Source of the DNA: Candidatus Moraniibacteriota bacterium
GTDB lineage: Bacteria > Patescibacteriota > Minisyncoccia > Moranbacterales > UBA1568
Assembly: GCA_016699385.1 (NCBI GenBank)
Contig: CP064974.1
Location: forward strand, 954,617-1,018,616
Length of the DNA: 64,000 bases
Direction of reading: 5' to 3'
The notes below the pieces were generated by a model. It saw only the letters and a list, made by a program, of their open reading frames with translations. It did not search any database and was not told where the DNA came from. Shown here one piece after another: positions 3,467 through 46,330 of this stretch. The translations under genes were made by a program, and so were the position numbers. Within the stretch, counting starts at the first letter, position 1; every line of letters begins with the position of its first letter.

Positions 3467-3517
3467 AATTCCTGAGTCATTCGAGTGCCACATAACACCT
3501 ATTACAATTCATCACAT

Positions 3518-3548
3518 AAAGAACTCCCTTCCTGGAAGTTCTTTTTAT
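3518..3548 (+). terminator. Rho-independent terminator after the CHAP hydrolase gene
   Basis: AAAGAACT-[11-nt loop]-AGTTCTTT hairpin followed by a T-run. Confidence 0.5.
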
Positions 3549-4193
3549 AACTCGCCCTTTACGCTAGATAACAATAATCTCCCATTTAAGTCGCCAAACA
3601 AAAAGTTCTACCATTCTGAGAGAAATTGAGGAATCCAACCTTTCAAGAAGCATCCCCTCTATCTCCTCAATTGAGATTCCGATCTGTCAACGGAGTAGAC
3701 CATTCACGCTAATACCTCAGATGGCGCGCACTCTCGTAGCAATAAAAGAAGATGAAGTGCTTTTGAAAATTATCCACATAGTCCTATACCTTTGCATCTC
3801 TCCTTACTAAACAGACACGTTTGTTTATATCCTGTGTACAACTAGGGTATTCCTTGTGAAAAAGTCTGGAAAAACTCTGTGCATTACTCACACAAAACGT
3901 GCACAAACCAACCACTACATCCACCAAGACAGCAAGATCATCTCATACACACTGACTCACCACATATCACCTCATTTGAAAAAGGTGAGAATACCCGCAC
4001 ATTCTCCACTTCTCCACTTCTCCACCGAACTAATAGTAATAATATTAAAAAATATTAAAAAAACAGTTACTGATTAATGCAAGGGGAGATACTTTGTGAA
4101 CTCATTTAGGAGAAAAGTAAAGGAAATTTCTCTTATCAAGGGATAGGTGCTCTGCGTTGTAGTTGAAGTGACACGTGGATATTTTGGAATTCC

Positions 4194-4218
4194 TTGACAG
4201 GTGTTTTCGTGGTATACT
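4194..4218 (+). promoter_or_regulatory. Extended -10 promoter for the T4SS-like gene cluster
   Basis: TTGACA...TGgTATACT (TGn extended -10). Located inside the 5' part of the longest ORF 4175..6217, which argues that the real start codon lies downstream. Confidence 0.4.
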
Positions 4219-4252
4219 TTCCACTAGAAAACTGTTTTTGTTTTTTTGTTGT

Positions 4253-6217
4253 GTGAACAAAAGTAGTAAAACAAAAAAAACTCTCTTGTTTCGGGCTTCT
4301 CTTTTTGTGAGAAGTCATCCAGCTCTGCTCCTTGTGGTACTTGTAGGGTGTTTTTTGTTGACGCCAAACATGCATGTAGTGCAGGCTGGTAGTTTTTTGG
4401 ATTTAGTAACAACGCCGAGCGCGTGGATTAATGCGCTTATATATCCTTTCTTTTTGTTTTTTTCATGGATTGTAAATCTTGCTGCAGGGATTTTTGTTTG
4501 GGTTATCAATGCGACAACGTTTACAAAACTCATGAATGCGGGGGCCATCTATGAGGTGTGGCTTATTGTTCGAGATTTTCTGAATATATTCTTTATACTC
4601 GTACTTCTTTTCTCGGCATTTGCTACGATATTTCAACTCGATAGATATGAATACAAGAAAACGATTCCCATGTTGGTTATTATGGCGCTTTTGGTGAATT
4701 TTAGTTTTCCTATTGCGCGTTTTGTGATTGATTTGGCAAATGTGCCAATGTATTTCTTTTCACAAAACATATTTGGAGTGGATGGGCCTAACGAGATTAC
4801 CTCTGGAGTATTGAGTGGGACAAAGATGCAAAATATTCTTATACCAGGAATTAATGATGATAAGTCATTGGTAGATTTTAGTACAACCCATCTCCTTGCA
4901 GCGACCATCTGTATGTTTTTATTTGGTATTTCTTTCCTTGTTTTGTCAGTGTTGATGTTGGTTCGTATGATAGCGCTTGCTATTTTGGTGATGTTTTCAC
5001 CAATTGGATTTGTAGGGATGATTACACCGGCGTTGCAAGGTTTTGCGAAGGGATGGTGGGATAAACTCTTTAAGTGGGCGTTCTATGGTCCAATAGCAGT
5101 CATGTTTGTGTTGGTGTCGGTAATTGTTATGAAGTCTGCTGGAGACTCAATATATCCAACAGCGGGTGCTGGAGGGGTATTTCAATCCACGGGAAATTCC
5201 GTGAATGATAATATGATATCTGCTGTTGCCTTCTTTACTATCCCAATAGTGCTTTTTTGGATCGCTATTACCTCAGCAGAGAAATATAGCAATGATATGT
5301 CAGGTATGAGTGTGAAGTTTGGGTCGCAACTAGGGAGAAAGGCTGGGGGATGGGTAAGAAAGGGCGCTTGGGGAACTACGAAGTGGGCTGCAAAGGCTCC
5401 ATTGAAAGCGATTGATAATGTTACCCAAAATAGAATCTCCGGAACTACTCTTGGAATTCGTGATGCTTGGAGGAATAGGCAGTCTGCATGGTGGGGTGGG
5501 AGTGATATTGAGAATCGAAGAAAGAAAGTTTCTGATGATGTGGCATCTTCATTGAAACGCAAGGGAACGAGTACTCAAGAGGTTCAGAAGAAAGTTGCTG
5601 AACATGAAAAAGAAAATACTACTGAGGCAGATTTGAGGGAGCTTGTTAGAAAAAATGGTGATATTGCTGCTGCAATGGTGCTTGTGAAGCAAGGGAAGTT
5701 GACGGATGAGGAGTTTGCAAAGGTCCGAGTTGACCTTGATGATACTAAGGATAAAGCCTTAGTTGATCTTCTTGAAGGAAAAGTAAAGGAGAAGCGGATT
5801 GATTTGGTTATGAATTATAAGATTAACCAGGAAGCTACTGAATTAATGAAAAGATCTCCTGGTATGTCGAGGGAGGCGGCATTGGCTCGTGTTGGGGAGT
5901 CGGTAGCAGAAAAAGAAATCAAGAAATTAGCGCCAAGTAAATGGAAGGAGCAGAGTTTGAAGGATTGGTTTAGTCTTAAGGATGCTGCTGGAAAGGAAAT
6001 CGACTATGACATTGATGATTCAACTGGTGTGATTGAAGTGAAAGATAAAGTTACGGGTGCAGTTATTCACTCAGAAGGAGCGGAAATTTTGAGGGCGAAG
6101 GTTGCAGCTGCTCGAACCACATTTGGTTCATATCATGGTAAAAATAAGGATAAAGCAATTGATGATATGACTGGAGAGAAATTCACAATAGGGCAGGATT
6201 TGAAGATTTTTGTGTAA
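4253..6217 (+). CDS. VirB6/TrbL (PrgH/TcpH)-like polytopic membrane protein of a Gram-positive-type T4SS. It has a long charged coiled-coil C-terminal domain.
   Basis: After a signal-like N-terminus (KSSKTKKTLLFRASLFVRSHPALLLVVLVGCFLL) there are about 8-9 hydrophobic helices over ~370 aa. The last ~300 aa are K/E/D-rich. It sits immediately upstream of PrgI-like and VirB4 genes. Start is uncertain: GTG near 4253, GTG near 4307 or ATG 4370 (the ORF-track start at 4175 is a GTG upstream of the predicted promoter). Confidence 0.55.
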   Translation: MNKSSKTKKTLLFRASLFVRSHPALLLVVLVGCFLLTPNMHVVQAGSFLDLVTTPSAWINALIYPFFLFFSWIVNLAAGIFVWVINATTFTKLMNAGAIYEVWLIVRDFLNIFFILVLLFSAFATIFQLDRYEYKKTIPMLVIMALLVNFSFPIARFVIDLANVPMYFFSQNIFGVDGPNEITSGVLSGTKMQNILIPGINDDKSLVDFSTTHLLAATICMFLFGISFLVLSVLMLVRMIALAILVMFSPIGFVGMITPALQGFAKGWWDKLFKWAFYGPIAVMFVLVSVIVMKSAGDSIYPTAGAGGVFQSTGNSVNDNMISAVAFFTIPIVLFWIAITSAEKYSNDMSGMSVKFGSQLGRKAGGWVRKGAWGTTKWAAKAPLKAIDNVTQNRISGTTLGIRDAWRNRQSAWWGGSDIENRRKKVSDDVASSLKRKGTSTQEVQKKVAEHEKENTTEADLRELVRKNGDIAAAMVLVKQGKLTDEEFAKVRVDLDDTKDKALVDLLEGKVKEKRIDLVMNYKINQEATELMKRSPGMSREAALARVGESVAEKEIKKLAPSKWKEQSLKDWFSLKDAAGKEIDYDIDDSTGVIEVKDKVTGAVIHSEGAEILRAKVAAARTTFGSYHGKNKDKAIDDMTGEKFTIGQDLKIFV

Positions 6218-28657: not shown

Positions 28658-28972
28658 ATGAAATCGCTCGCGAAATTTCTTGCTTCGAAGTATCGTCAGG
28701 ACTCGGCACCTCGCAAGCGGAAGGTGCGAGTGATTGACGAGAAGACAATATTTTTTCTCGTGGCGAAAATCCTCGAAGAAGAATATGGTAAGCGAGGTGT
28801 CGCCTCGGTAGTGCCACGATATTTTGATGGAAGGAAACTTTTCCTTTCTTGCAAGAGCAGTCTTTGGGTCGAGGAAGTGATTGCGTTTCGTGCGGACTTG
28901 CTTCGGCGGCTCTCCGAGCAGGGAGTGGACAGTGTCACTGATATCAAGGCGTCGCACGAATACGGAAGGTGA
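28658..28972 (+). CDS. DUF721/DciA-like small protein, a likely helicase-loader-associated protein in the dnaN neighbourhood
   Basis: 104 aa, basic N-terminus. Sits immediately downstream of dnaN, where DciA/DUF721 genes commonly lie. Assignment rests on size, position and composition rather than on a diagnostic motif. Confidence 0.45.
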   Translation: MKSLAKFLASKYRQDSAPRKRKVRVIDEKTIFFLVAKILEEEYGKRGVASVVPRYFDGRKLFLSCKSSLWVEEVIAFRADLLRRLSEQGVDSVTDIKASHEYGR

Positions 28973-28998
28973 GCCATTTGTTATTTCAAGGATTTTTT

Positions 28999-30249
28999 AT
29001 GGGGATGGAAAACAGACAATTTGTTTTTGAGATCCGCGGAGAAAAGGAGGGAAATTCGCACGATATTTCTCTTGAATCTCCACAGAAGAAAGATGAAAGA
29101 TCCCTCAAGGATTTCATGCAGGATATTGCTGATGCTTATTTTCTGGAGATGGCTGACCCTGCGAAACATGCAGGGAGTATTCGAATCCAAGATGCTGCAC
29201 TGAACTATGTTTTAATGCAAGCGATTGATCAGGGTATTCTCCCAGCGAATACAAGGAATTTCGGGTGGGTAAGTTCCATTTTTGTTCCGGGAAGCTTCCA
29301 AGAAGAACTTGCATTGACGTCGAAGTTTTTCAGTGGAAAGCTTGGTGAAATTAAGGGATTTGCAACCGAAATGAATGCATTGATTGGGGCTCATATTTCT
29401 CCAGATGAAAGGCGTGAAAAAAAGGAGGCCTTGCGAAGGAAATATATTCTTGCATTGTATAATGACTGGAAAGGGATTTTGGGAAAACGACCGCCAGACA
29501 TGAGTGGTATTGAGGCGCCATATCAATATATTGTGAGGGAATGTAGCTTCAAACGGAACTATATTGATCAGTCGGACAACTCTCGAACTTGTGAAATTGG
29601 AACAAATACGGAGCTTGATTCGGAGCGAAAAATAGATCTTGTAAAGATAGAAAAAGGATCTGATGGGCGGTATATCGCACACTTGGTTCAGTGTAAAAAC
29701 AGCCCTCCGAGCAAATTGGAATATGAAAAAATACTGATAGCGCACAAGGAATTCGTTCAAGGAATTCTCTCCAAAGAGGTGGCGTCGTTCATAGAGGATA
29801 ATCTCAATGATGGAACATTTTCAACCAAGTGGAAAGACTTTATTGCAAGCGAGTTAGTGAATGAGGAGAATGTTTCAAATACGTACAATAGGCTTGTATC
29901 GTTTGCGCAAAAAACGATCGAAGATTTTCAGGATTCTTCGAAAGGAAATGATACAAGGAAAAAAGGCGATATGCTGAAGGGAAAAGGCAAACAAGATATT
30001 ACGAGGTTTGCGAGAACTTTTCGATCGCAAGAATGGGAAGACATTATTGACCAAGAATGCAAAGGATTTGGTGAAGATCGCAAGAGCGCTCTCAAAAACG
30101 CTTTCCGCGATTTTCTTTCGAAGAACCAAGGACAGAATGAAAATTCTCGAGGGTATCTTCATAAAGGGAACACTGACTTTTATTCCGTGATCTATTCGCG
30201 GGATAAAGAGACGAATTCTTGGGGCGTACTTGCGAGTGTTCGGATTTGA
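28999..30249 (+). CDS. Hypothetical 416-aa soluble protein with no recognised domain
   Basis: Long open frame with protein-like composition. A central stretch TELDSERKIDLVKIEKGSDGRYIAHLVQCK faintly resembles a PD-(D/E)xK core (speculative). The start is ambiguous (GTG 28969 or ATG 28999/29005). Confidence 0.55.
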   Translation: MGMENRQFVFEIRGEKEGNSHDISLESPQKKDERSLKDFMQDIADAYFLEMADPAKHAGSIRIQDAALNYVLMQAIDQGILPANTRNFGWVSSIFVPGSFQEELALTSKFFSGKLGEIKGFATEMNALIGAHISPDERREKKEALRRKYILALYNDWKGILGKRPPDMSGIEAPYQYIVRECSFKRNYIDQSDNSRTCEIGTNTELDSERKIDLVKIEKGSDGRYIAHLVQCKNSPPSKLEYEKILIAHKEFVQGILSKEVASFIEDNLNDGTFSTKWKDFIASELVNEENVSNTYNRLVSFAQKTIEDFQDSSKGNDTRKKGDMLKGKGKQDITRFARTFRSQEWEDIIDQECKGFGEDRKSALKNAFRDFLSKNQGQNENSRGYLHKGNTDFYSVIYSRDKETNSWGVLASVRI

Positions 30250-32561: not shown

Positions 32562-32767
32562 AAACCGAAAATCAACTTTTGAGGTGCGTCGGGTAGCGGG
32601 GTATTTCCTCGCTTACGTCATGGTCGGGATGCGATGGTTTTAGGGATAGGATGGATTTTTGGGGAGACCAACGTGTCTCCTCTTTTTGTTTTTTTAAGGC
32701 ATTTAAAGAGGTGTCTTTTTGAGTGACATGTTTTGCCTCTCGTGCTGAAGCGGTGTAGACTTTGGGT

Positions 32768-33334
32768 ATGGAAAAAAAATCTCTTGGGAGTGCAAAGAAT
32801 GAGGTGAAAGAATTGGGAGTGGGAGAAAGTCCCCTAGAGGAGCTTGCGGAGCGATCGGCGCGGGCGATCGGGTCGGTGACGTCGTTGACAATTCACTCGA
32901 TATTTTTTGTCGGGATTTTTTCACTTTCTTTCTTCAGGTTCACCTTTGATCAAATTCTTCTTATTTTAACGACAGTCGTCTCGCTTGAGGCGATTTATCT
33001 TGCCATATTCATTCAGATGACGGTGAATCGGCAGGCGGAAGATATCGACGAAGTGCAGAAGGATATCGATGACATTCAAGAAGATGTGGAAGATATCTCA
33101 GAGGATATTGAAGATATTCAGGAAGATGTTGAGGAAATCGGCGAGGATGTCGAAGGCATTCAAAAAGAAGTGGAAGAAATTGGCGATGATGTTGAAGAAA
33201 TCTCGGAGGATATCGAGAAAGAAGAGACCGAAGAAGATCAAGAACGACGATCAACCGATGAGAAGCTGGAGAAAATAGAAGGCGCACTTCAAGCCTTGGT
33301 CCAAGATATAGAGAAGTTGCGTCGAGAGCGATAG
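32768..33334 (+). CDS. DUF1003-family membrane protein with a C-terminal acidic heptad-repeat (coiled-coil) tail
   Basis: Two TM helices and LILTTVVSLEAIYLAIFIQMTVNRQAED (DUF1003 motif LNLxLSxxAAxQAPxIMMSQNRQ). Then about 8 heptads, DI(D/E)(D/E)IQE / DVEEIGE (21-nt periodicity at 33040-33220). Confidence 0.6.
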   Translation: MEKKSLGSAKNEVKELGVGESPLEELAERSARAIGSVTSLTIHSIFFVGIFSLSFFRFTFDQILLILTTVVSLEAIYLAIFIQMTVNRQAEDIDEVQKDIDDIQEDVEDISEDIEDIQEDVEEIGEDVEGIQKEVEEIGDDVEEISEDIEKEETEEDQERRSTDEKLEKIEGALQALVQDIEKLRRER

Positions 33335-33998: not shown

Positions 33999-34036
33999 AA
34001 AACCCCCTTCGAAATTCCGAAGGGGGTTGTTTTTTC
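33999..34036. terminator. Bidirectional rho-independent terminator between convergent genes
   Basis: AAAA-CCCCCTTCG-AAATTC-CGAAGGGGG-TTGTTTTTT, a 9-bp GC-rich stem with A-run and T-run flanks. Confidence 0.7.
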
Positions 34037-34042
34037 AGGTAA

Positions 34043-36712
34043 CTACGGTGTTGCTGGCAGGGCGCTGGTTTTTACATCTTTTGAGGTTTTTACTTCGTTG
34101 CCAAGTTTGTCTTTGAGGCGGGCTTCGATGGAGAGAGTGCTGCCGAGTTTCCCATCAGGGATGGCGTAGGTGGTGGAGAGTGAATTGCCACCGGCGGAGT
34201 CAACCTTGTCGCCATCGACATATATCTCGAGCAAATCAATGCCGTATGGTGCATCGCCTTTGGCTGAGATGGAGAGTGATGCGGAGGATGTTTCGCTTGG
34301 AACTGAGAGCGAGACTTCCGGACCGAATTTCGAAACGAAATCTTCCTCGGAACATTTCTCTGTCGGAGGGCTTTCGAAGATGACTTTCTTGTCCTTGCCA
34401 TACCAATCTTCGGCAGCCTTGTCCCATGCTTTGTATTGCGGGTCGCGTTCAGGCTTGTCGGGGATGGGACCGCGCGGGTCGCTTCGGTCTACATAGGCGA
34501 GGATGTCGTGCGGACTAATGAAGTCTCGTTTGAATTGCTCTTTCTCAGGGCAGGCATCGCTTGCGAGGCAGAGGTTGCTGCTCTTTGGAATCTCGCAGAC
34601 CTTTACACCTTCTTTCTTCTCAATCCATCCGCCGAGGAGGGGTTTGGTAATCTTTGGGAAATGCGGATCGAGTGGATCATTGGTTGTTTCATTGGTAGTG
34701 TCTGGAGTTGGAAGAGGGGTATTTTCGACGACTGTTGAATCTGGAACAGTAGGTGCATCTTTTGAGGTGTCCTTGAGATCACCATTTTTATCTCGTGGGG
34801 CAATTTCGTCATCGGGATTATATTTGGGAAACTCTTCGACAGCAGTATTTTCGAGTGCTTTATCCATGAAGGATCGCCAGATGGGAGAGGCGACATAGGA
34901 GCCGTCGGAGCCAGGCTTCATCGGGGAATTGTCATTGTTGCCCGCCCAGACGCCGGCGGCGAGTGAGGGAGTATAGCCAATTGTCCAGGCGTCGCGCCAT
35001 TCATTGGTGGTGCCGGTCTTCGCTACCATAGGACGATTGTCGGAGCGGAGCGGATTGTTCTCACCGAAAACCCACGCGCGGTTTTCATTCTTCGAGAGTA
35101 CGGAGTCGAGCATGGCAACGAATTTCTCTGCGACAATACGTTCGCCGGGTGAGTCTTTGTATTCTTCTTGCACTTCGCCTTTGGAATTTTCAATCTTCAG
35201 TATCGCGGTTTTCTCGTGCTTGACGCCACCGGTTGCGAGAGTGGCATAGGCATTCACATGATCGAGGAGTTTGACTTCGCCACCACCCAAGACAAGGGAG
35301 AGTCCGTAGCGTTCGGGCTGATTGAGGGTGGTGATACCGAGGTTTTTTGCGAGCGTAATAGCATCTTTGACGCCGACCAAGTAGAGCACTTTGACAGCGG
35401 GGACATTGAGTGATCCGCCGAGCGCTTTCATGAGGGGTAGTGGTCCGTGAAATGTTCCGTCGTAATTTTGCGGTTCATAGGATTTGCCGTCTTCGGTAGA
35501 GAAATTTGTTGGTACATCGTAGATTACGGTTTCAGGGACATAGCCTTTGGTGAAAGCGTCGAGATAGACATAGGGTTTGAAGGACGATCCCGGTTGGCGA
35601 TCTCGGATGGCGACATTTACCTGCCCATCAATCTTGGTGTCGAAATAGTTCTTCGAGCCGACCATTGCAAGAATTTGCCCGGTCTTGGGATCGATGGCGA
35701 CGAGGGAGGCATTTTCGGCATTATAGCGGAGGTTCTTTTCGGCGCCTTCGGATACCGCTTGCTCCGCTGCCTGTTGTTTTTCCCAGTCGAGTGTCGTTGT
35801 CACTTTGAGTCCACCTTGTTCAATCTGGTCATCGCCGTAGTGTTTGGCGAGATATTCTTTTACATACATTACGAAGTGCGGCGCGGCAATTTGTTCGCGC
35901 TGAGCAGTGAGTTTCTGAAGCGTGTCTATTGATTTTGCTTCAGTAGCTTCATCGGCAGTGATATAGCCAAGACTTGCCATGGTTGTGAGTGCTTTCGCTT
36001 GTCGCGCCTTCAGTTCCTCGAGATGTGAGCCGTAAGGGGAATAGTAGGTTGGCGCATTGGGGAGGGAGGCGATGAGGGCGGATTCGTCGAGTGTGAGGTC
36101 TTTCGCATTTTTCCCAAAAAATGTTTGTGCTGCTGCTTCGAGTCCATAGGCATTTGAGCCATAGGGAATTTCATTGAGATACATGGCGAGAATCTCGTCT
36201 TTCGAGAATTTCTGTTCCATTTCGACGGAAAGTATTGCCTCTCGTATTTTGCGTGTGAATGTTTTCTCGGGAGTGAGGAGAGAATTCTTGACGAATTGCT
36301 GTGTGATAGTGGATCCACCCTGCTGAGCGCCACCCCCGACAAAGTCCTTGAAGACTGCCCGCATGATGGAGGAGAACTTGATGCCGTGATGAGAATAGAA
36401 ATCTTGATCTTCGAGGGTGATGGTTGCTGCTCGAACAGCCGCCGGCATTTCGGAGAAAGGTATGATAGTGCGCTTCTCTTCACCGTGCACTTCGTAGAGG
36501 AGGTGTGTGCCGGTGCGGTCGAAGATCTTGGTCGACTCGGCAATGAAACGCGTATTCACCTTACCGGGGCTAGGCAAATCTTTGGCGAAATATGCAAATA
36601 CACCAACAACAGACAGTATGCCCACAATGAAAAGCCCGAGGAAAATTCGGAGAGCCCATTTCCAGAATCCGGATTTTTTCTTCGGCGATGAAGAGAATGA
36701 GGATTTCTTCAT
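34043..36712 (-). CDS. Class A penicillin-binding protein (PBP1A-type transglycosylase plus transpeptidase) with a Pro/Thr-rich C-terminal extension
   Basis: N-terminal TM anchor. GT51 motifs (ITLEDQDFYSHHGI, GGSTITQQFVKN, RKIREA). Transpeptidase region (AIDPKTGQILAMVGSKNY; SSFKP; KTGTT). A ~250-aa C-terminal low-complexity tail. Start trimmed to MKKSSFSSSPKKK at 36712. Confidence 0.85.
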   Translation of the reverse strand: MKKSSFSSSPKKKSGFWKWALRIFLGLFIVGILSVVGVFAYFAKDLPSPGKVNTRFIAESTKIFDRTGTHLLYEVHGEEKRTIIPFSEMPAAVRAATITLEDQDFYSHHGIKFSSIMRAVFKDFVGGGAQQGGSTITQQFVKNSLLTPEKTFTRKIREAILSVEMEQKFSKDEILAMYLNEIPYGSNAYGLEAAAQTFFGKNAKDLTLDESALIASLPNAPTYYSPYGSHLEELKARQAKALTTMASLGYITADEATEAKSIDTLQKLTAQREQIAAPHFVMYVKEYLAKHYGDDQIEQGGLKVTTTLDWEKQQAAEQAVSEGAEKNLRYNAENASLVAIDPKTGQILAMVGSKNYFDTKIDGQVNVAIRDRQPGSSFKPYVYLDAFTKGYVPETVIYDVPTNFSTEDGKSYEPQNYDGTFHGPLPLMKALGGSLNVPAVKVLYLVGVKDAITLAKNLGITTLNQPERYGLSLVLGGGEVKLLDHVNAYATLATGGVKHEKTAILKIENSKGEVQEEYKDSPGERIVAEKFVAMLDSVLSKNENRAWVFGENNPLRSDNRPMVAKTGTTNEWRDAWTIGYTPSLAAGVWAGNNDNSPMKPGSDGSYVASPIWRSFMDKALENTAVEEFPKYNPDDEIAPRDKNGDLKDTSKDAPTVPDSTVVENTPLPTPDTTNETTNDPLDPHFPKITKPLLGGWIEKKEGVKVCEIPKSSNLCLASDACPEKEQFKRDFISPHDILAYVDRSDPRGPIPDKPERDPQYKAWDKAAEDWYGKDKKVIFESPPTEKCSEEDFVSKFGPEVSLSVPSETSSASLSISAKGDAPYGIDLLEIYVDGDKVDSAGGNSLSTTYAIPDGKLGSTLSIEARLKDKLGNEVKTSKDVKTSALPATP

Positions 36713-37001
36713 GGCGTCTGTTGGAAGGTTTATGGTGCCAAGGGGTCCTCGGGAAAGTGTTGATGTGCCCTGTCGATGTGTCATGCGCGCACACCAGCGC
36801 CCGACAGATGAGTCTGCGAGTCGGGAAGGAAATGAGTCTGGATTTTCTCGCAGACGTCGCCACGCGTCTTTCACATCCCGGAGGATGGATTTCAAATGTT
36901 CCATTGTTCGCCGGAAAACGGCTTACTCATGGCTCAATGCATTGCAACACTTCGCCATTTATGTCTCTATTGTAGCGCGAAAAGAAGGTAGATTCAAGGA
37001 G

Positions 37002-37952
37002 TTAGAGTGAGGAGAGTTTCTCTTGAAAGACTGCTAAAAGCGCGTGATACATTTTTTCCATACTGGGTCTTTCTTCGGGCGTGAAATAGAGACCAGGCAT
37101 GGAGTTGAGTTCAACAATCCATGGGAATCTGTTTTTGTCGAACATGATGTCGATTGTATAAATCTTTGGTTGAAATGATGAAAAGATTGATTGTGCTCTA
37201 TCAATAATCGGACGGACTGATTGAGGAATATCCTTGTTGTGAATAATCCTTAAACTCCCTCCTTGAGCGAGATTAGCAAGAAAGCTCCCAGATTTTGGCT
37301 CACGTATATAGGCGTATATTATGGCATCGTTAACGAGAATTATACGGAAATCATGCATTTTTGATGATATGTTCGGCACGCCATGGGAGGAATCTATAAA
37401 ATCTTGAATGATATGTTCACCTGAAAATGATATGTCTTTTGCATTTTCTTTTTCAAAAATTTGAATCCCTTTTCCTCCGCTTTCGTTTATCGGTTTTAAT
37501 ACAACTTTTTCTGTTGTAATTTCGGAAATATTTTTTTGAAGCTCTGTCGGATTTCTAACGAGTATGCTTTTCTTGCTCCATTCCTGGAAGAGTAAACTGG
37601 AAAGAAATTTATCATCAATTATTCGAGTAAAGTGCAAATCGTTTATGAAGGAATAGTGCATTCCGATAGATTCTTTTTTGTAGGATGATTCTGCATGACT
37701 TCTTGTCTTGTCGTAGATAATATCCGGAATTATGTCGTGGACACGTTTCCATTGATTATCTTCGTATGTCCATGCGTGACGGAATATATTTTTCTTGTAA
37801 TCATACCACTGGTAGGATGCGCGGTACATCTGAATTCCTCCCTGCTTGCAGAGAGAATAGAATAGTTCGTAAGAATATTGGCGCCCCCTATCGTTAAACG
37901 GAACTTTATTTTCCCAATTGCTTTTCCCGAAGAGGAGGAGTACTTTTCTCAT
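37002..37952 (-). CDS. ATP-grasp family ligase (YheC/YheD- or RimK-like). Strongly AT-rich gene.
   Basis: VLKPINESGGKGIQIF, DFRIILVNDAIIYAYIR and IVELNSMPGL are the ATP-grasp large-domain motifs. It is the last gene of the 4-gene minus-strand operon. Composition is visibly AT-richer than its neighbours. Confidence 0.6.
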   Translation of the reverse strand: MRKVLLLFGKSNWENKVPFNDRGRQYSYELFYSLCKQGGIQMYRASYQWYDYKKNIFRHAWTYEDNQWKRVHDIIPDIIYDKTRSHAESSYKKESIGMHYSFINDLHFTRIIDDKFLSSLLFQEWSKKSILVRNPTELQKNISEITTEKVVLKPINESGGKGIQIFEKENAKDISFSGEHIIQDFIDSSHGVPNISSKMHDFRIILVNDAIIYAYIREPKSGSFLANLAQGGSLRIIHNKDIPQSVRPIIDRAQSIFSSFQPKIYTIDIMFDKNRFPWIVELNSMPGLYFTPEERPSMEKMYHALLAVFQEKLSSL

Positions 37953-37971
37953 AGAAAATTTCTCTGAAGTT

Positions 37972-38895
37972 TTATGAAGAATGTGCTGTAAATTCCAAAT
38001 TAGACATTATGTAAAGAACATTTCGGTGCTCTTCACTGGAAAGGCTTTCTGTTTTTGTTGCCCTTCTCAAGTCACGTATGTATCCTAATTTTTTAGAGAA
38101 ATTTTCAACACATTCTTCCTGTATTGCTTTGAGGAGAGCTGACTGTGTTTGACAGAGCTTTGCTGCAACAAGAAATTCTACTTTGTTGTCTAAAGATATT
38201 ATAGGGAAATGCTTCTCAAGAATTTCCTCACACAAGTAAATTATGGATTGGTATATATCGGTGTTTTCTTGTAGGGGTTTTTTGTTGTAGAATTCTGACT
38301 CTCCAATAATGCAGTGTGTGAAATAGTAAAGACTTAGTTCGGCGTATTCGTTTGTATCAGGATAGTGTTTCTCGGCGATATGAAGGAGATTTTCAGGGTG
38401 AAACAGTGTAGAATCTTGCAAGATTCCCCTGGTAAGGTAGAGGAAATTTATACCGAGTGTAGAGAGTGCTATGAGTGAATGAGGATCATTGAGAAGTGTC
38501 TTTGCATAGAATTGAAGGATATCTTTAGGTATCGCAAGAAGAACTCTCTCTCGGATGTCAACTCTAAAAATGGTCTTTAGAAATAACCACTTGAAAAGTA
38601 GCGCATTGTATTGGGTAATCCAAGGATATTTTTCGAGCGCGAATTGTCTTTGATGTAGAAATCTTCTTGAGTGTTCTGCAACAGGGTTCTTTACGTTCTC
38701 TAGGATTTCTTCAATGTTTTCAAGAAAAAAATCTTTTAAAGAAATTAATCTTTTCTCATAGCAGGACTCTTGTGTCCATAGAAATAATCTCGAGTTGAAG
38801 TGGAACTGCTTGGCTTTTGAAAGCGATTCCATGTTATCGCAATAAGTTTTCAGAACTTTTTGTTGAATAGACTTCGTGACTTCCCTTGGAGACAT
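37972..38895 (-). CDS. Hypothetical protein (307 aa), AT-rich. It sits inside the ATP-grasp operon. No signal peptide and no recognised motif.
   Basis: Open frame in operon context: 19 nt upstream of the next gene, 11 nt downstream of the previous one. Confidence 0.5.
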   Translation of the reverse strand: MSPREVTKSIQQKVLKTYCDNMESLSKAKQFHFNSRLFLWTQESCYEKRLISLKDFFLENIEEILENVKNPVAEHSRRFLHQRQFALEKYPWITQYNALLFKWLFLKTIFRVDIRERVLLAIPKDILQFYAKTLLNDPHSLIALSTLGINFLYLTRGILQDSTLFHPENLLHIAEKHYPDTNEYAELSLYYFTHCIIGESEFYNKKPLQENTDIYQSIIYLCEEILEKHFPIISLDNKVEFLVAAKLCQTQSALLKAIQEECVENFSKKLGYIRDLRRATKTESLSSEEHRNVLYIMSNLEFTAHSS

Positions 38896-38906
38896 AGAAT
38901 GATTTT

Positions 38907-40316
38907 TTATTTCGTTACGTCCACTAAAAACTTCCGTAGATTCTTTTTTCCAATAATAACGGGATAGTCTAATTCCGAACGGTCGATGAGGGTAACTTTT
39001 GTGAGGATAACAAACGAATTTATGACAACTTGTATTTCTATCTTAATTCGATACGTGGTGCCATGCGAAGACTTTACTGGGACAGATGAAACAACATTCG
39101 GAATTCCCTCGAACATTTTCCATCGTGTTTCACGGTCGAGTGCAGAGAGGTTCCCCCATGTTTTTTGCGCACTCTGATAGCCATCCACAGTTTCCCCAAA
39201 TCCCAACTCTCGTGCAAGCTCGGTATCAATCGAGGTGGAGTCGGCGCCGGTGTCTATTTTTGCTTCAACTTCTATTTCTTTGCCGTTTTTGCCGATGAGT
39301 TTCACTTTTTCTACGGTGCCAATGATTTTCTTGCCGGAGATTTCCTCAAGTTCTTCTTCAATCTCGCCACCGAAGAGATCCATGCCCATACGTAAACCCT
39401 TCTCGACGGTTTTGATGGTGAGTCCTGAGACGCGCTCGAGTCGACCTTTTAGTCCATCAAGGTTGGCGACTTGTATCGAGAGTCCCGGGCGAGCATTTAG
39501 TTCGAGGAAGACTGGGCCGCGATCGCGATCGATAGCGACGTCAGCGCCGAGGAATCCGAGTCCGGAGACTTGCTGTGCTTCGATCGCCATTTTGAGGATA
39601 TCTTTCCAATAGGGGATGCGGATACCAGAGAGGACAAGTCGGGTGCCGGGGATGTTCTCGATGATGCGATTCTTGCCCCAGACGGCGGTTGTTGTTGTCC
39701 CGGAGGCGAGGTCTATGCCGACGCCGATTGCGCCCTGTTGGAGGTTGGCGCGTCCGCCGGACTCTTTGGTTGGGAGGCGGAGCATCGCCATGACGGGCAC
39801 CTTGTTGTAGATGACGATGCGAATATCAGGGACGCCCTTGAAGGTGTATGGCTTGAAAAGTTTGAGGAGTTTCAGTCGCTCTTCAAAGAATGCGGAGTCG
39901 GGGATATTTGCGAGTGAAAAGGAACCATCGAGAATATTTCGGATATGTGTTTTCAAATCTTCAATTGTAACAAGGGATCCGTCTGCCTTGATCCAGGTGT
40001 GCTCGGTATCCTTTTTCTTCCCATAGACGACGATGATTCCTTCGCCGCCAAAGCCGTGATTTGGCTTTAGGGCAAAGCTCCCAGGAAGGGATGACCAGTC
40101 GAAATTCTCGATCTCGTGTGCATCTTTGATACGAGCAAGGAGGGCGGGAACAGGGAGCTCATGCTTGGTGAGGAGTCGCTTGCACGCCATTTTGTCGTCG
40201 GCGAGACGCTTTGCTCGGCGCTTGTTGTAAGGGCGCAGATAGTCGAGATTGCGTGCATTCATGCCGAGAATATCCCGACTTCTTTTCCAGGCTTCGAGAA
40301 AGTGGAACATAGACAT
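38907..40316 (-). CDS. Fusion protein: RimK-related alpha-L-glutamate-ligase-like ATP-grasp (N-terminal) plus a retropepsin-like 'putative ATP-dependent zinc protease' domain (C-terminal)
   Basis: The N-terminus RDILGMNARNLDYLRPYNKRRAKRLADDKMACKRLLTKHELPVPALL matches the RimK-related E-ligase family signature. The C-terminal ~130 aa carry AKIDTGADSTSID ... LIDRSELDYPVIIGKKNLRKFLVD, the aspartic-protease D-T-G-A motif and fold signature of the PF05618-type domain. Confidence 0.7.
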   Translation of the reverse strand: MSMFHFLEAWKRSRDILGMNARNLDYLRPYNKRRAKRLADDKMACKRLLTKHELPVPALLARIKDAHEIENFDWSSLPGSFALKPNHGFGGEGIIVVYGKKKDTEHTWIKADGSLVTIEDLKTHIRNILDGSFSLANIPDSAFFEERLKLLKLFKPYTFKGVPDIRIVIYNKVPVMAMLRLPTKESGGRANLQQGAIGVGIDLASGTTTTAVWGKNRIIENIPGTRLVLSGIRIPYWKDILKMAIEAQQVSGLGFLGADVAIDRDRGPVFLELNARPGLSIQVANLDGLKGRLERVSGLTIKTVEKGLRMGMDLFGGEIEEELEEISGKKIIGTVEKVKLIGKNGKEIEVEAKIDTGADSTSIDTELARELGFGETVDGYQSAQKTWGNLSALDRETRWKMFEGIPNVVSSVPVKSSHGTTYRIKIEIQVVINSFVILTKVTLIDRSELDYPVIIGKKNLRKFLVDVTK

Positions 40317-40319
40317 TTC

Positions 40320-40973
40320 CTATGATTTCAACAATTTCGAAAACCGCAGGTATTCCGAAAGACGTAATCCTCTCCATCGACCGAGGAAAATATTGACCGG
40401 AATCGTGAGGAGGACAATCCAGGGTGAGAGGAGGAGGATACTTGCAAGTACCTGAGAGCGCGCGAGGAAATACCCGATGAGAGAGATAAAGAGCGTCTCG
40501 GTGGCGAGAATGAGTGCGGTTTTGTCACCTTTTTCGATTTGCGTGGCGACAAATTTCTCGACCAGGGTAATCATGATGAGGAGCGGAAAGATAGAGACGG
40601 AAGCGAGTCCGGTGCGATGGAGGTAACCGCCGGCAACGAGTATGCCAAGGATAACGATGGCGACGATAGTGAGGGTAATCGCGACGCGCGGGAGATAGAG
40701 GAGGCGGAGTCTTCGGAGGAGGAGTCGCGAGAGCATGCCAATTAAGATGATGCTCACAAAGATGGCGATGCCGTATTTGAGTCCGCCCGGATCAAATGCA
40801 AGAAAGGCAAAGGTGACAATTGATGGCGTGTAGATGCCAAATGCCTTGATACCGACGACTTGTCGGAAAAAGGCGACGAGTGTGACGATGAGTGGGAACA
40901 TGAGTATGTACCGAATTGTATCGATGGGAACTCCCTGGTCGATGAAGTTGAGAAAGAGAGGGTGGAGAGACAT
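40320..40973 (-). CDS. Seven-TM membrane protein, the first gene of the ATP-grasp operon. It is the candidate 7TM partner known from RimK-like peptide-ligase systems.
   Basis: 217 aa with seven evenly spaced hydrophobic helices. The stop is 3 nt before the next gene's start. Confidence 0.5.
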   Translation of the reverse strand: MSLHPLFLNFIDQGVPIDTIRYILMFPLIVTLVAFFRQVVGIKAFGIYTPSIVTFAFLAFDPGGLKYGIAIFVSIILIGMLSRLLLRRLRLLYLPRVAITLTIVAIVILGILVAGGYLHRTGLASVSIFPLLIMITLVEKFVATQIEKGDKTALILATETLFISLIGYFLARSQVLASILLLSPWIVLLTIPVNIFLGRWRGLRLSEYLRFSKLLKS

Positions 40974-41044: not shown

Positions 41045-41548
41045 TTAACTCTGCTTGTTTTCTTTGAGCATATTTTGGTACGTTCTGCTGTTGGCATGAC
41101 AGAGGGCAAGGGCAAGGGCGTCGGCGACGTCATCGGGCTTGGGAATCTTTGCGAGCTTCAAGATACTCTTGATCATGATTTGCATTTGTTTTTTCTCCGC
41201 GCGTCCGTAGCCTGTGAGGGATTGTTTGACCTGGAGCGGTGTGTACTCAGATAGCCTAATGCCCAGGGTCTCAAGCGTCAAGAGTATGGCTCCGCGGGCT
41301 TGACTCACATCGATGACTGTTTTCTGATTCTTGAAGAAAAATATCTTTTCGACGGAGGCTTCTTCAGGGGAATATTTCTTCGAAATTTCTCGGAGGTCGC
41401 TGGCGATTTCGGCGATACGTTCGGAGAGTGGAAGTGTTGCACTGGTCGAGATATGTCCGTAGGCTATGGCGGTTATGACACCTCCACTCACATCGAGAAC
41501 GCCCCATCCAACCGTTGCTGTTCCAGGATCGATGCCGAGAATGCGCAT
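41045..41548 (-). CDS. ruvC: Holliday junction resolvase RuvC
   Basis: MRILGIDPGTATVGWGVL...AIAYGHI...EKIFFFKNQKTVIDVSQARG...DVADALALALCHA (RuvC catalytic D/E/D/D context). Confidence 0.9.
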   Translation of the reverse strand: MRILGIDPGTATVGWGVLDVSGGVITAIAYGHISTSATLPLSERIAEIASDLREISKKYSPEEASVEKIFFFKNQKTVIDVSQARGAILLTLETLGIRLSEYTPLQVKQSLTGYGRAEKKQMQIMIKSILKLAKIPKPDDVADALALALCHANSRTYQNMLKENKQS

Positions 41549-44892: not shown

Positions 44893-44942
44893 TCCCTCGG
44901 GGATTTATTTTCGAGGATTTGTCTACAGGCTGGCGGGGATGT
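44893..44942 (+). repeat. 50-bp direct repeat, copy A, upstream of ORF 44979
   Basis: CCCTCGGGGATTTATTTTCGAGGATTTGTCTACAGGCTGGCGGGGATGT is identical to 45995..46044. Both copies sit 35-40 nt before an SD and an ATG. Confidence 0.8.
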
Positions 44943-44978
44943 GTCTCGTCTTTCAAAGTTTTACGAAAGGAGGTGGTG

Positions 44979-45397
44979 AGATGAGTGCTCGTGAAATAAG
45001 GCAGGCTATTCGTGGCGCAGTACTGTCGTCTGTGAATAGGATCAATTTATGTGGTGATCGCATATTTCAGATGAGTTGGGATAGCGACTCCGCAAATATT
45101 CTGAAATGCTTACTCAAAAATGATATCGTTAAGGAACGATACGTTCGTGAGCAACTGGACATTCGATTAAAAGCACTGGGTCGTTCCTGTTTTGAGCAAT
45201 ATAAGCGTGGCAAATACCCAGATCGTGTACTTTCGCCACAAGCTCTCGCATATGCGCTTCAGCATGGAGAATTCACTCCGGAAGAAAAAGCTGTCATACG
45301 GTTTAATCACGGTGATACAAAAGGGACATTTGTTCGAACATTTAATAGGGATGATCAGTTGCTCCAAAAGGTGTTTGACCAACTAATCTCTACGTAA
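44979..45397 (+). CDS. Hypothetical protein (139 aa)
   Basis: An AGGAGGTG SD 6 nt upstream of the ATG. Protein-like composition (MSAREIRQAIRGAV...). Preceded by the 50-bp repeat. Confidence 0.5.
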
Positions 45398-45489
45398 TTT
45401 TGAACAATTTCTAACTTCTTGTTAAAAGCGAATATTCTATCCAAAATAAGAATATTTGCTTTTTTCTTTCTCAAAATCTTTCCAAATCT

Positions 45490-45540
45490 TTACGGATGCA
45501 CGACACAGAGGACTTCGTCGAGGGAATTTTCTTTGCTGTT
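45490..45540 (-). pseudogene. Remnant of a PilB/GspE-family gene 3' end (last ~16 codons plus stop)
   Basis: The minus strand translates to ...SKENSLDEVLCVVHP*. Compare the intact C-terminus of the adjacent ATPase gene, ...EGETSLDEVLRVVHP* (46989). Nucleotide identity is ~75% over 65 bp with 46965..47030. Confidence 0.6.
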
Positions 45541-45994
45541 TTCCCTTTATTGCGCTACAATCAAGCTATGCAGAACTGGTCAACCGATATCGCTGAACTC
45601 AAAAAAGATCCGGAGCAATACGCGCTGTGGCGTCTTGAGCATTTGGTGAATTTTGGTCTGGGCGGAGAACGAATCGATTAAAAAGAATTTCGGAAGTATT
45701 GGAGCAAAATGACTTTGGATCCGAACAAAAAAATTACCTCACTCTGCTTTTATGGCCGAAACAATCCTGAGCGAAAATCAAAGAAAAGTTTTGGAAGCAG
45801 TGAGTATGAATCCGATGGTGTGTGAAAACTTTCACTTGATTGAAGGATTATCAAGTAGTGAAGGCTTCTTCTTCAAGATATAAGGTATTCATTCTTGACG
45901 GAATACGAATTCCGCGTTATTGTGGAGTGTCGTTCTTTGAGGTCTTGGTAGGGAGTACATTAACAAAGCGGATGTATGGAACGATAGATGGTAC

Positions 45995-46044
45995 TCCCTC
46001 GGGGATTTATTTTCGAGGATTTGTCTACAGGCTGGCGGGGATGT
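45995..46044 (+). repeat. 50-bp direct repeat, copy B
   Basis: Identical 49-50 nt to copy A. Followed by a GGAGGAT SD and ATG at 46080. The downstream reading frame appears disrupted. Confidence 0.8.
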
Positions 46045-46330
46045 TTGCCTTTCTTAAAAATGTATTGGAGGATATTGAAATGAAAAGTCTGCATGACATG
46101 AATGGGCTGTCGAACAGATTGCGGAGGCGAAAAAATTGGATAGGGGTGTCTATGCGCGGTTTTTCGGGGCAGAGATCTGGGTGTTTTCTTGGGATACACC
46201 GAAAGATGTCGCTGATCGCATTTTCTCTGTATCACGAGAGAAGTCGGTGGAAGATCAATCGACCCATGAAGTGCGATTGAAAACTCGCTATGGGAGCTGA
46301 ACTATTGCCCTTTTGGGCGGAGGTGATGTG

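Follow-up and report, generated by a model that had tools for sequence, protein, structure and literature searches.

Background

The closest described relatives of the locus analyzed here are the rloABC operon of Pseudomonas aeruginosa and the RimK/RimB pair, in both of which an ATP-grasp ligase is accompanied by a retropepsin that acts on poly-glutamate (poly-Glu). The locus consists of four minus-strand genes between positions 37,002 and 40,973 of a 64,000-nt stretch of Candidatus Moraniibacteriota contig CP064974.1 (GCA_016699385.1, forward-strand positions 954,617-1,018,616); the whole stretch is referred to below as "the window". The genes encode a seven-transmembrane (7TM) protein, an ATP-grasp ligase fused to a retropepsin-like protease, a DUF3541-like protein of 307 amino acids (aa), and a second ATP-grasp ligase that we call GRASP2.

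The rloABC genes have been studied by genetics and structure determination (Lormand et al., mBio 2025, PMC12239564). RloA is a secreted retropepsin that cuts runs of 8 or more glutamates, RloB is an inactive transglutaminase fused to a 7TM module, and RloC is a cytoplasmic ATP-grasp protein (PMC12239564). Cells that lack all three RloA paralogues die under hypo-osmotic conditions, have shape and biofilm defects and are sensitive to beta-lactams, and deletion of rloB or rloC suppresses the defects of RloA loss (PMC12239564). The distribution of RloB is 96% proteobacterial (PMC12239564). In the Rim system RimB stimulates poly-Glu synthesis by RimK (PMC11957791), and a RimB-RimK hybrid of Desulfotalea, RimBK, is proteolytically active (Little et al., JBC 2025, PMC11957791); earlier papers on RimK/RimB appeared in PLoS Genet in 2016 and 2020. 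With these 2025 studies, the statement in an earlier sequence-based note on this DNA (hereafter the original prediction) that such ligase, protease and 7TM combinations are experimentally uncharacterized is outdated.

Iyer, Abhiman, Burroughs and Aravind (Mol Biosyst 2009) are said to have predicted amidoligase systems that combine 7TM/inactive transglutaminase proteins, ATP-grasp ligases and aspartyl proteases, and reportedly made the general prediction that such systems carry out peptide ligation linked to the cell surface. The families PF14397 and PF14402, both of which appear below, presumably originate from that work.

Relationship of the locus to Rlo and Rim systems

On the evidence of profile searches and alignments, the Moranbacteria locus is best described as a compact Rlo homologue, assembled from component families and following a Rlo/Rim logic that are already known. 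All four open reading frames (ORFs) were found in the window's ORF list with the order, coordinates and 3-19 nt gaps that had been reported for them, and the domain identities, including the fusion of ligase and retropepsin, were borne out by Pfam and NCBIfam profiles. The genes and the parts of the fusion are as follows.

40320..40973, minus strand: 7TM membrane protein, 217 aa
38907..40316, minus strand: ligase-retropepsin fusion protein, 469 aa
39426..40253, minus strand: ATP-grasp domain of the fusion, residues 22-297 (PF14397, TIGR02291)
39327..39374, minus strand: acidic linker of the fusion, FGGEIEEELEEISGKK, residues 315-330 (from the translation)
38916..39323, minus strand: retropepsin-like aspartic peptidase domain of the fusion, residues 332-467 (PF05618)
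39243-39254, minus strand: catalytic DTGA motif of the fusion, residues 355-358
37972..38895, minus strand: DUF3541-like, predicted all-alpha protein, cassette gene 1, 307 aa
37002..37952, minus strand: GRASP2, RimK-like ATP-grasp ligase (cassette family C0), cassette gene 2, 316 aa

The ligase half of the fusion matches PF14397 (ATPgrasp_ST) at 233 bits (cut-off 31.4) over residues 22-297, and shares 44% identity (E 2e-75) with the "alpha-L-glutamate ligase-like protein" encoded in a canonical A-B-C operon (retropepsin / inactive transglutaminase-7TM / ligase) on a Legionella plasmid. Its Mg/ATP motif, E272-x-N274, is invariant in an alignment of the fusion with 23 homologues. The match to the RimK profile PF08443 is confined to residues 242-280 (36 bits), and the score against TIGR00768 is 34 bits (cut-off 143), so that by sequence this ligase belongs to the RloC family and is not a true RimK.

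The protease half matches PF05618, the retropepsin-like "Zn_protease" family, at 39 bits (cut-off 27) over residues 332-467, and its sequence matches in the PDB are RloA (9g58, E 2.8e-7), RloA2 (9g59) and Lpg0085 (2pma). The NCBIfam equivalog models for RloA1-3 give 26-37 bits, far below their cut-offs of 210-280, which makes the domain an RloA homologue rather than an equivalog. Residues K353, D355, R423 and R446 align with RloA K46, D48, R114 and R137 (the offset being derived from the 9g58 alignment), and all four are invariant among the 23 homologues. In RloA the R114A and R137A substitutions abolish poly-Glu cleavage and complementation (PMC12239564). The retropepsin fold proposed for this domain in the original prediction is upheld by the PF05618 score, the 9g58 and 9g59 matches, the DTGA motif and the conserved poly-Glu residues.

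The two halves are joined by an acidic linker whose motif, FGG-E-[IV]-EEE-[ILV]-E-[ED]-[IL]-SG-[KR][KR], is found in 83 of 86 fusion ORFs and whose E-phi-EEE-phi-EE-phi spacing resembles an amphipathic helix. Retrovirus-like self-cleavage at the linker was considered and downgraded because it holds at most three contiguous glutamates, too few for cleavage of the RimB type (5-6 or more, PMC11957791) or the RloA type (8 or more, PMC12239564). The N-terminus of the fusion, MSMFHFLEAWKRSRDILGMNARNL, is hydrophilic and lies within the ATP-grasp domain. There is no signal peptide; hence trimming by this protease must be cytoplasmic.

The 7TM protein matches PF14402 (7TM_transglut; E 3e-29, 102.6 bits, cut-off 25), aligns at 29% identity (E 4e-21) with residues 310-506 of the "inactive transglutaminase family protein" (508 aa) from the Legionella operon, and matches the NCBIfam RloB model only at positions 298-507 of 508 (86 bits, cut-off 900). 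By these comparisons it is homologous to RloB's C-terminal 7TM half and has no counterpart of the N-terminal inactive transglutaminase domain.

The locus thus resembles rloABC, of which operons like the canonical one also occur in Vibrio and Legionella, in that a retropepsin, a 7TM_transglut domain and a PF14397/TIGR02291 ATP-grasp are encoded in one operon, and in that the poly-Glu-channel residues K46, R114 and R137 of RloA are kept in the window protease. It differs in gene order (B-C::A rather than A-B-C), in having a cytoplasmic protease fused to the C-terminus of the ligase whereas RloA is secreted with a signal peptide, in lacking the entire periplasmic inactive-transglutaminase domain of RloB, and in its setting, a candidate phyla radiation (CPR) host with a variable ligase cassette after the core. 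The likeness to the Rim system lies in the physical and functional coupling of an ATP-grasp glutamate ligase to a cytoplasmic, poly-Glu-removing retropepsin, in the existence of a natural and active ligase-protease fusion (RimBK), and in the RimK-like character of GRASP2. Rim systems, however, have no 7TM partner, and their known substrate is RpsF. In RimBK the protease is N-terminal and joined to a true RimK, whereas the Moranbacteria fusion has an N-terminal ligase that belongs to the RloC family; the reversed order of domains and the different ligase family imply that the Moranbacteria fusion is independent of RimBK.

We therefore favor, with a probability of roughly 55%, the reading that this is the Moranbacteria form of the Rlo/Rim systems, in which a membrane-side acidic chain would be built by the core ligase and trimmed by the fused retropepsin, the product then being extended or modified by GRASP2 and the 307-aa protein.

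Conservation and synteny of the core

The ligase-protease fusion is the standard architecture in Moranbacteria and is not rare. More than 120 cluster representatives with 65-99% identity carry the same two Pfam domains, and relatives turned up in at least 437 genomes when one genome per species was scanned; the named homologues are from Candidatus Moranbacteria/Moraniibacteriota or Patescibacteria. The original prediction had called a fused ligase-protease plus a second ligase a distinctive variant, which these counts do not support as regards the fusion.

Synteny was analyzed in 80 retrieved loci and five more from exact look-ups. The shared order is YebC - RuvC - 7TM - fusion - variable genes - PBP1A, and the two genes that bound the operon and its variable site in the window are the following.

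41045..41548, minus strand: RuvC, upstream boundary, context only (PF02075, E 2e-47)
34043..36904, minus strand: PBP1A, downstream boundary of the cassette site, context only, 953 aa (Transgly and Transpeptidase domains)

Identity to the window proteins spans 60-86% for the fusion, 60-92% for the 7TM protein (70 Moranbacteria loci), 51-87% for PBP1A and 54-84% for RuvC, indicating that the 7TM-fusion core is as conserved as RuvC and PBP1A across about 80 species-level genomes. The 7TM and fusion genes, 3 nt apart in the window, are adjacent in about 70 of 86 loci; for most of the remainder the simple ORF caller had chosen a longer overlapping ORF or the contig ended. PBP1A lies past the cassette site in every one of the 63 loci long enough to include it, of which 61 have cassette genes and two have none, and is inverted in three (L011, L035 and L045).

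Many of the representative metagenome-assembled genomes (MAGs) with a typical Moranbacteria locus (L006, L008, L012-L016 and others) carry "uncultured Bdellovibrionales bacterium" as their title, and the title of one reads "Bathyarchaeia archaeon". These titles are probably taxonomic mislabels or reflect bin contamination.

A variable, low-GC cassette between the fusion gene and PBP1A

The stretch that follows the fusion gene, up to PBP1A, holds from zero to six genes per locus, which clustering and Pfam searches assigned mainly to ligases: 53 GRASP2-type ATP-grasp genes, about 30 RimK-like ATP-grasp genes and 27 ATP-grasp_3/Ddl-like genes. They are accompanied by GT4 glycosyltransferases (13), MATCAP/PF08014 peptidases (9), Mur ligases (5-6), GNAT (4) and YdjC (2) proteins, and by DUF3541-like proteins that either stand alone or form ATP-grasp::DUF3541 fusions of about 600 aa. 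The site is empty in two genomes (L024 and L056). The MATCAP/PF08014 metallopeptidase is homologous to the tubulin tyrosine carboxypeptidase family; its gene lies at L001:6566-8011, at L002:5159-6604 and in seven other loci. A further family, C5, consists of proteins of about 620 aa that have no Pfam match and occur alongside ATP-grasp genes in six loci, L003:11320-13179 and L069:6733-8595 among them.

Cassette genes are lower in GC than the core genes in 60 of 61 complete loci, by a mean of 6.4 points (Wilcoxon p = 1e-11). The difference in the window, 13 points, is among the most extreme. The distal genes of the window had been described as AT-rich relative to their neighbors, and this proved accurate (36-38% GC versus about 50%).

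The distribution of cassettes is incongruent with that of the core. Loci L003, L007, L008 and L004, the nearest relatives by core with fusions 72-80% identical to that of the window, have no GRASP2 orthologue (36% identity or less) and no orthologue of the 307-aa protein, yet species whose fusions are just 60-68% identical carry GRASP2 at 53-61%. In L001 and L002 (fusion 86%), which with L171 belong to the clade of the window, the distal pair is just 57-68% identical and is joined by the MATCAP peptidase gene, of which tblastn found no remnant in the window. Locus L171 is collinear with the window at 93% nucleotide identity and has the same cassette. Close homologues of both distal genes are all from Moranbacteria. 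This makes the site a gene-turnover hot spot among Moranbacteria, and the distal pair is one allele of a lineage-wide, hypervariable, low-GC accessory cassette. The proposal that the pair is a module added later by horizontal transfer holds to this extent; L171 shares the cassette, and its distribution is compatible both with gain in the window lineage and with replacement in sister lineages.

Clusters for O-antigen, capsule and teichoic acid likewise occupy a fixed site, differ in content among relatives, have a GC content below that of their flanks and encode transferases and ligases. The analogy extends to the fixed site, variable content, lower GC and enzyme classes of the cassette, but the latter holds mainly ATP-grasp amidoligases rather than glycosyltransferases, and has no flippase or polymerase genes. 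The name of PF14397, "sugar-transfer associated ATP-grasp", fits the GT4, YdjC and GNAT genes in the cassettes of relatives. The low GC of those cassettes, with their GT4, YdjC, GNAT and Mur-ligase genes, points to an envelope-directed product.

The Mur ligases and Ddl-like ATP-grasp proteins in some cassettes, together with the invariable presence of PBP1A beyond them and the shape defects and beta-lactam sensitivity of Pseudomonas rlo mutants (PMC12239564), would also suit a peptidoglycan-specific role in which residues of the stem peptide or cross-bridge, used by PBP1A, are made or changed by the ligases. Synteny within one lineage is weak evidence for such a role, however, as RuvC and YebC are equally syntenic and PBP1A is inverted in three loci, and no above-threshold similarity to the Ddl, MurT or D-Asp-ligase families was found (Ddl E 0.005-0.13). 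In addition, we know of no role for a poly-Glu-specific protease in peptidoglycan synthesis. We regard this explanation as very improbable.

GRASP2 and the DUF3541-like protein

GRASP2 scores 52 bits against PF08443 (RimK), above the cut-off, and 34 bits against YheCD, and also matches GSH-S_ATP, ATP-grasp_3 and TTL. With 54 bits for TIGR00768 (cut-off 143) and no Rimk_N domain, it is on profile evidence RimK-like without being a member of RimK; the nearest solved structures are nonetheless those of RimK (7qys, 5zct and 4iwx). Its E-x-N motif is IVELNSMPG. Every named protein among its 310 homologues is from Moranbacteria/Patescibacteria.

The 307-aa protein matches PF12060 (DUF3541) at model positions 5-300 of 330 by the narrow margin of 29.1 bits to a cut-off of 28.2, and many members of the family gathered by profile search have no precomputed PF12060 match. 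For these reasons it is best regarded as a divergent sister family of DUF3541. The original prediction had raised a transglutaminase-like or alpha-E-like fold; structure prediction instead gave an all-alpha, toroid-like (alpha/alpha toroid) model, and both of those folds were rejected. Its invariant polar residues (H32, R36, W40; S145, T146, N150, Y153; T193, H194, (C195), E199, S200; D236, K238, E240; E289, H290, N292) suggest an active or binding site. A full-text literature search on DUF3541 found nothing.

An exhaustive profile search with this protein, hereafter the toroid, returned 647 clusters (50% identity). Among the best 150 matches, roughly every third is one of the ATP-grasp::DUF3541-like fusions of 590-610 aa, and at least nine are ATP-grasp::DUF3541-like::retropepsin triple fusions of about 760 aa. 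Among 73 metagenome loci with three or more ORFs, an ATP-grasp gene is fused to the toroid or lies within three genes of it in 71, a retropepsin is present in 54, and in 21 the toroid is itself fused to a ligase, indicating that the toroid is a recurrent third partner of ligase/retropepsin pairs. In five non-Moranbacteria loci (L111, L119, L120, L134 and L149) a retropepsin::RimK-like fusion of about 465 aa is divergent from a stand-alone DUF3541-like gene; such protease-first fusions, ordered like RimBK, imply that ligase-protease fusions arose in both orders.

Outside Moranbacteria the DUF3541-like gene is almost always accompanied by a retropepsin of its own. In Moranbacteria cassettes it never is, and the core fusion holds the only retropepsin of the locus, which suggests that the toroid and the cassette ligases depend on the core retropepsin. 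This argues against the explanation that the distal genes are independent of the core, being a self-contained ligase and toroid module lodged in a permissive insertion hot spot. The freely varying content of the cassette, empty in two genomes, its composition unlike both flanks, and the occurrence of DUF3541-like and ATP-grasp modules in other genomic contexts are what such independence would predict. But the distal genes are co-directional with the core at gaps of 11 and 19 nt without a convincing terminator between, and the site gathers almost exclusively ATP-grasp ligases and peptide- or sugar-modifying enzymes rather than random cargo. Independence of the distal genes is in our judgment unlikely.

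In other CPR genomes, a canonical RimK (Rimk_N + RimK) follows two of the triple fusions, with no 7TM gene called in the retrieved locus. Such modules of DUF3541-like, RimK-like and retropepsin domains beside RimK, the RimK structures nearest to GRASP2, the conserved poly-Glu-binding residues, and a protease that lacks a signal peptide and is joined to a cytoplasmic ligase all lend themselves to another explanation, namely a cytoplasmic tail modification of the RimK/RimB type. Glutamates would be added to and removed from the C-terminus of S6 or another cytosolic protein, tuning translation, and the 7TM protein would anchor or regulate the enzymes or be their target. The core ligase, however, is of the RloC family, its RimK match being local, and the 7TM gene is invariably directly upstream of the fusion. 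In Pseudomonas, deletion of rimB shows no genetic interaction with rlo mutants (PMC12239564). The GT4, YdjC, GNAT and Mur-ligase cassettes fit a ribosomal target poorly, and neither an S6 (rpsF) gene nor an acidic-tailed candidate was identified in the window. On balance this explanation, the main rival of the favored reading, seems possible but doubtful.

Proposed activity

Under the favored reading of the locus as a Moranbacteria form of the Rlo/Rim systems, the core ligase would spend ATP on assembling an acidic alpha-peptide chain, rich in Glu. The chain would be attached to an acceptor at the membrane's inner face, beside the 7TM protein. The fused retropepsin, active as a dimer, would trim the chain and cap its length, in parallel with the action of RimB with RimK and with the genetic counteraction of RloB and RloC by RloA. 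The cassette would then alter or extend the product: GRASP2 might be an initiator or elongator partner of the core ligase or might add a different residue, and the toroid, as a dedicated partner of ligase/protease pairs, could take part in substrate binding or in a further modification step. Direct support comes from homology, domain architecture, the conserved catalytic and poly-Glu residues, synteny, cassette variability and composition, whereas the use of glutamate, the nature of the acceptor, what the 7TM protein does and where the product goes are matters of inference. Our best guess is that the product is envelope-directed, because the membrane partner is obligatory, the cassettes include sugar-handling and Mur-ligase genes, and Pseudomonas mutants show shape and beta-lactam phenotypes.

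Several results weigh against this reading. The TIGR02291 (rimK_rel_E_lig) score of the fusion ligase, 288.9 bits, is below the curated cut-off of 314.2. The AlphaFold2 model of the whole fusion is of low confidence (mean predicted local distance difference test score, pLDDT, 57); its best Foldseek matches have RloA on top and include RimK, Ddi1 and HIV protease, which we took as weak support only. Foldseek found nothing significant in the PDB for the toroid model. Just 13 of the 73 toroid loci have a 7TM gene, and since DUF3541-like/RimK/retropepsin modules are mostly without one, the distal pair could target a cytoplasmic protein. The cytoplasmic location of the protease weakens the analogy to the periplasmic Rlo system and any export model. 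Finally, the adjacency of PBP1A, which the original prediction had offered as a hint of envelope function, is single-lineage synteny like that of RuvC and YebC, and is weak when taken alone.

A search of the literature found no published description of a CPR-wide, transglutaminase-less, ligase-first fusion, of a DUF3541-like toroid as a partner in such systems that is backed by gene fusions, or of a hypervariable low-GC ligase cassette downstream of the fusion.

Composition and transcription of the locus

From the 7TM gene to GRASP2 the intergenic gaps are 3, 11 and 19 nt; 71 nt separate RuvC from the 7TM gene, and 97 nt separate GRASP2 from PBP1A. Within the operon the minus strand contains no convincing intrinsic terminator, only three matches with 5-bp stems and no proper T-run, and in the promoter and terminator scan the total number of matches was not clearly higher than in shuffled sequence. 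A palindromic, GC-rich hairpin of 11 bp, AACCCCCTTCGAAATTCCGAAGGGGGTT, which has a T-run, lies at 34001-34028, 15 nt past the PBP1A stop codon, and is probably a bidirectional terminator that closes the minus-strand gene string from RuvB to PBP1A.

GC content and GC at third codon positions (GC3) are 0.377 and 0.388 for the GRASP2 gene (37002-37952), 0.365 and 0.354 for the 307-aa gene (37972-38895), 0.500 and 0.557 for the fusion gene, 0.509 and 0.624 for the 7TM gene, and 0.511 and 0.544 for PBP1A. The shift in the two distal genes affects all three codon positions. One-kb GC over the window has a mean of 0.467 (sd 0.036), and the distal pair is its most AT-rich stretch, together with 3.5-5 kb. 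GC3 values of 0.35-0.38 are also found in several other genes of the window, so that GC3 alone is not unique to the pair. Other low-GC islands lie at 3501-5000 (ORF 4175-6217, plus strand, 680 aa) and 28969-30249 (plus strand, 426 aa), with 1-kb GC of 0.367-0.383 and gene GC of 0.40-0.41; the distal genes are thus not the sole compositional outliers. Inside the fusion gene, the retropepsin part (38907-39320) has a GC content of 0.432 and GC3 of 0.435, and the ligase part (39360-40316) 0.534 and 0.614. The drop in GC therefore starts within the fusion gene, not at its stop codon.

Elsewhere in the window, a 65-nt direct repeat (44893-44957 and 45995-46059, 1102 bp apart, the first ~50 nt identical and 89% identity overall) flanks a low-GC stretch (0.385-0.41 at 45200-45800) that lies between RuvB and the 45840-46280 ORF, and may represent either a regulatory region that was duplicated or the two ends of a small insertion. 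At 32762-33334 on the plus strand a DUF948-like protein with an N-terminal transmembrane segment and long acidic repeats, DIDEVQKDIDDIQEDVEDISEDIEDIQEDVEEIGEDVEG, is encoded; the gene is kept on the far side of PBP1A in L003, L004, L007, L008 and L171.

Other classes of element were tried and rejected. An RNA element has no support, as the window holds no Rfam match and no tRNA. None of the four proteins matches any PADLOC model of anti-phage defense at E <= 0.01. A graspetide or other system for RiPPs, peptides that are made by the ribosome and then modified post-translationally, would need a precursor peptide, for which the gaps of 3-97 nt are too short to hold an ORF, and none is conserved in relatives.

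Implications

In Pseudomonas, Rlo bears on how cells tolerate osmotic stress, keep their shape, form biofilms and resist beta-lactams. Models of Rlo function are constrained by the Moranbacteria version, in that ligase and protease are covalently joined in the cytoplasm, the transglutaminase domain is dispensable and the 7TM module is retained, and the hypervariable ligase cassette suggests that the product is diversified between strains. The two complete genomes in the analysis are about 1 Mb each. A core as conserved as RuvC and PBP1A in such reduced CPR genomes is probably important for the biology of these episymbiotic-type bacteria.

A wider picture, which we offer tentatively and consider doubtful as a whole, would join a universal minimal Rlo-type machine, the 7TM protein with its fused ligase-protease, to a cassette, reshuffled by horizontal transfer, whose ATP-grasp ligases, glycosyltransferases and trimming enzymes yield strain-specific acidic peptide or glycopeptide polymers of the envelope, with the toroid as a previously unrecognized enzymatic or adaptor part of RimK/RimB/Rlo systems. 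If that picture is true, these bacteria would possess an ATP-grasp-based counterpart of O-antigen or teichoic-acid diversity, and the cytoplasmic fusion would imply that Rlo systems ancestrally work by coupling ligase and protease inside the cell and not by secreting the protease.

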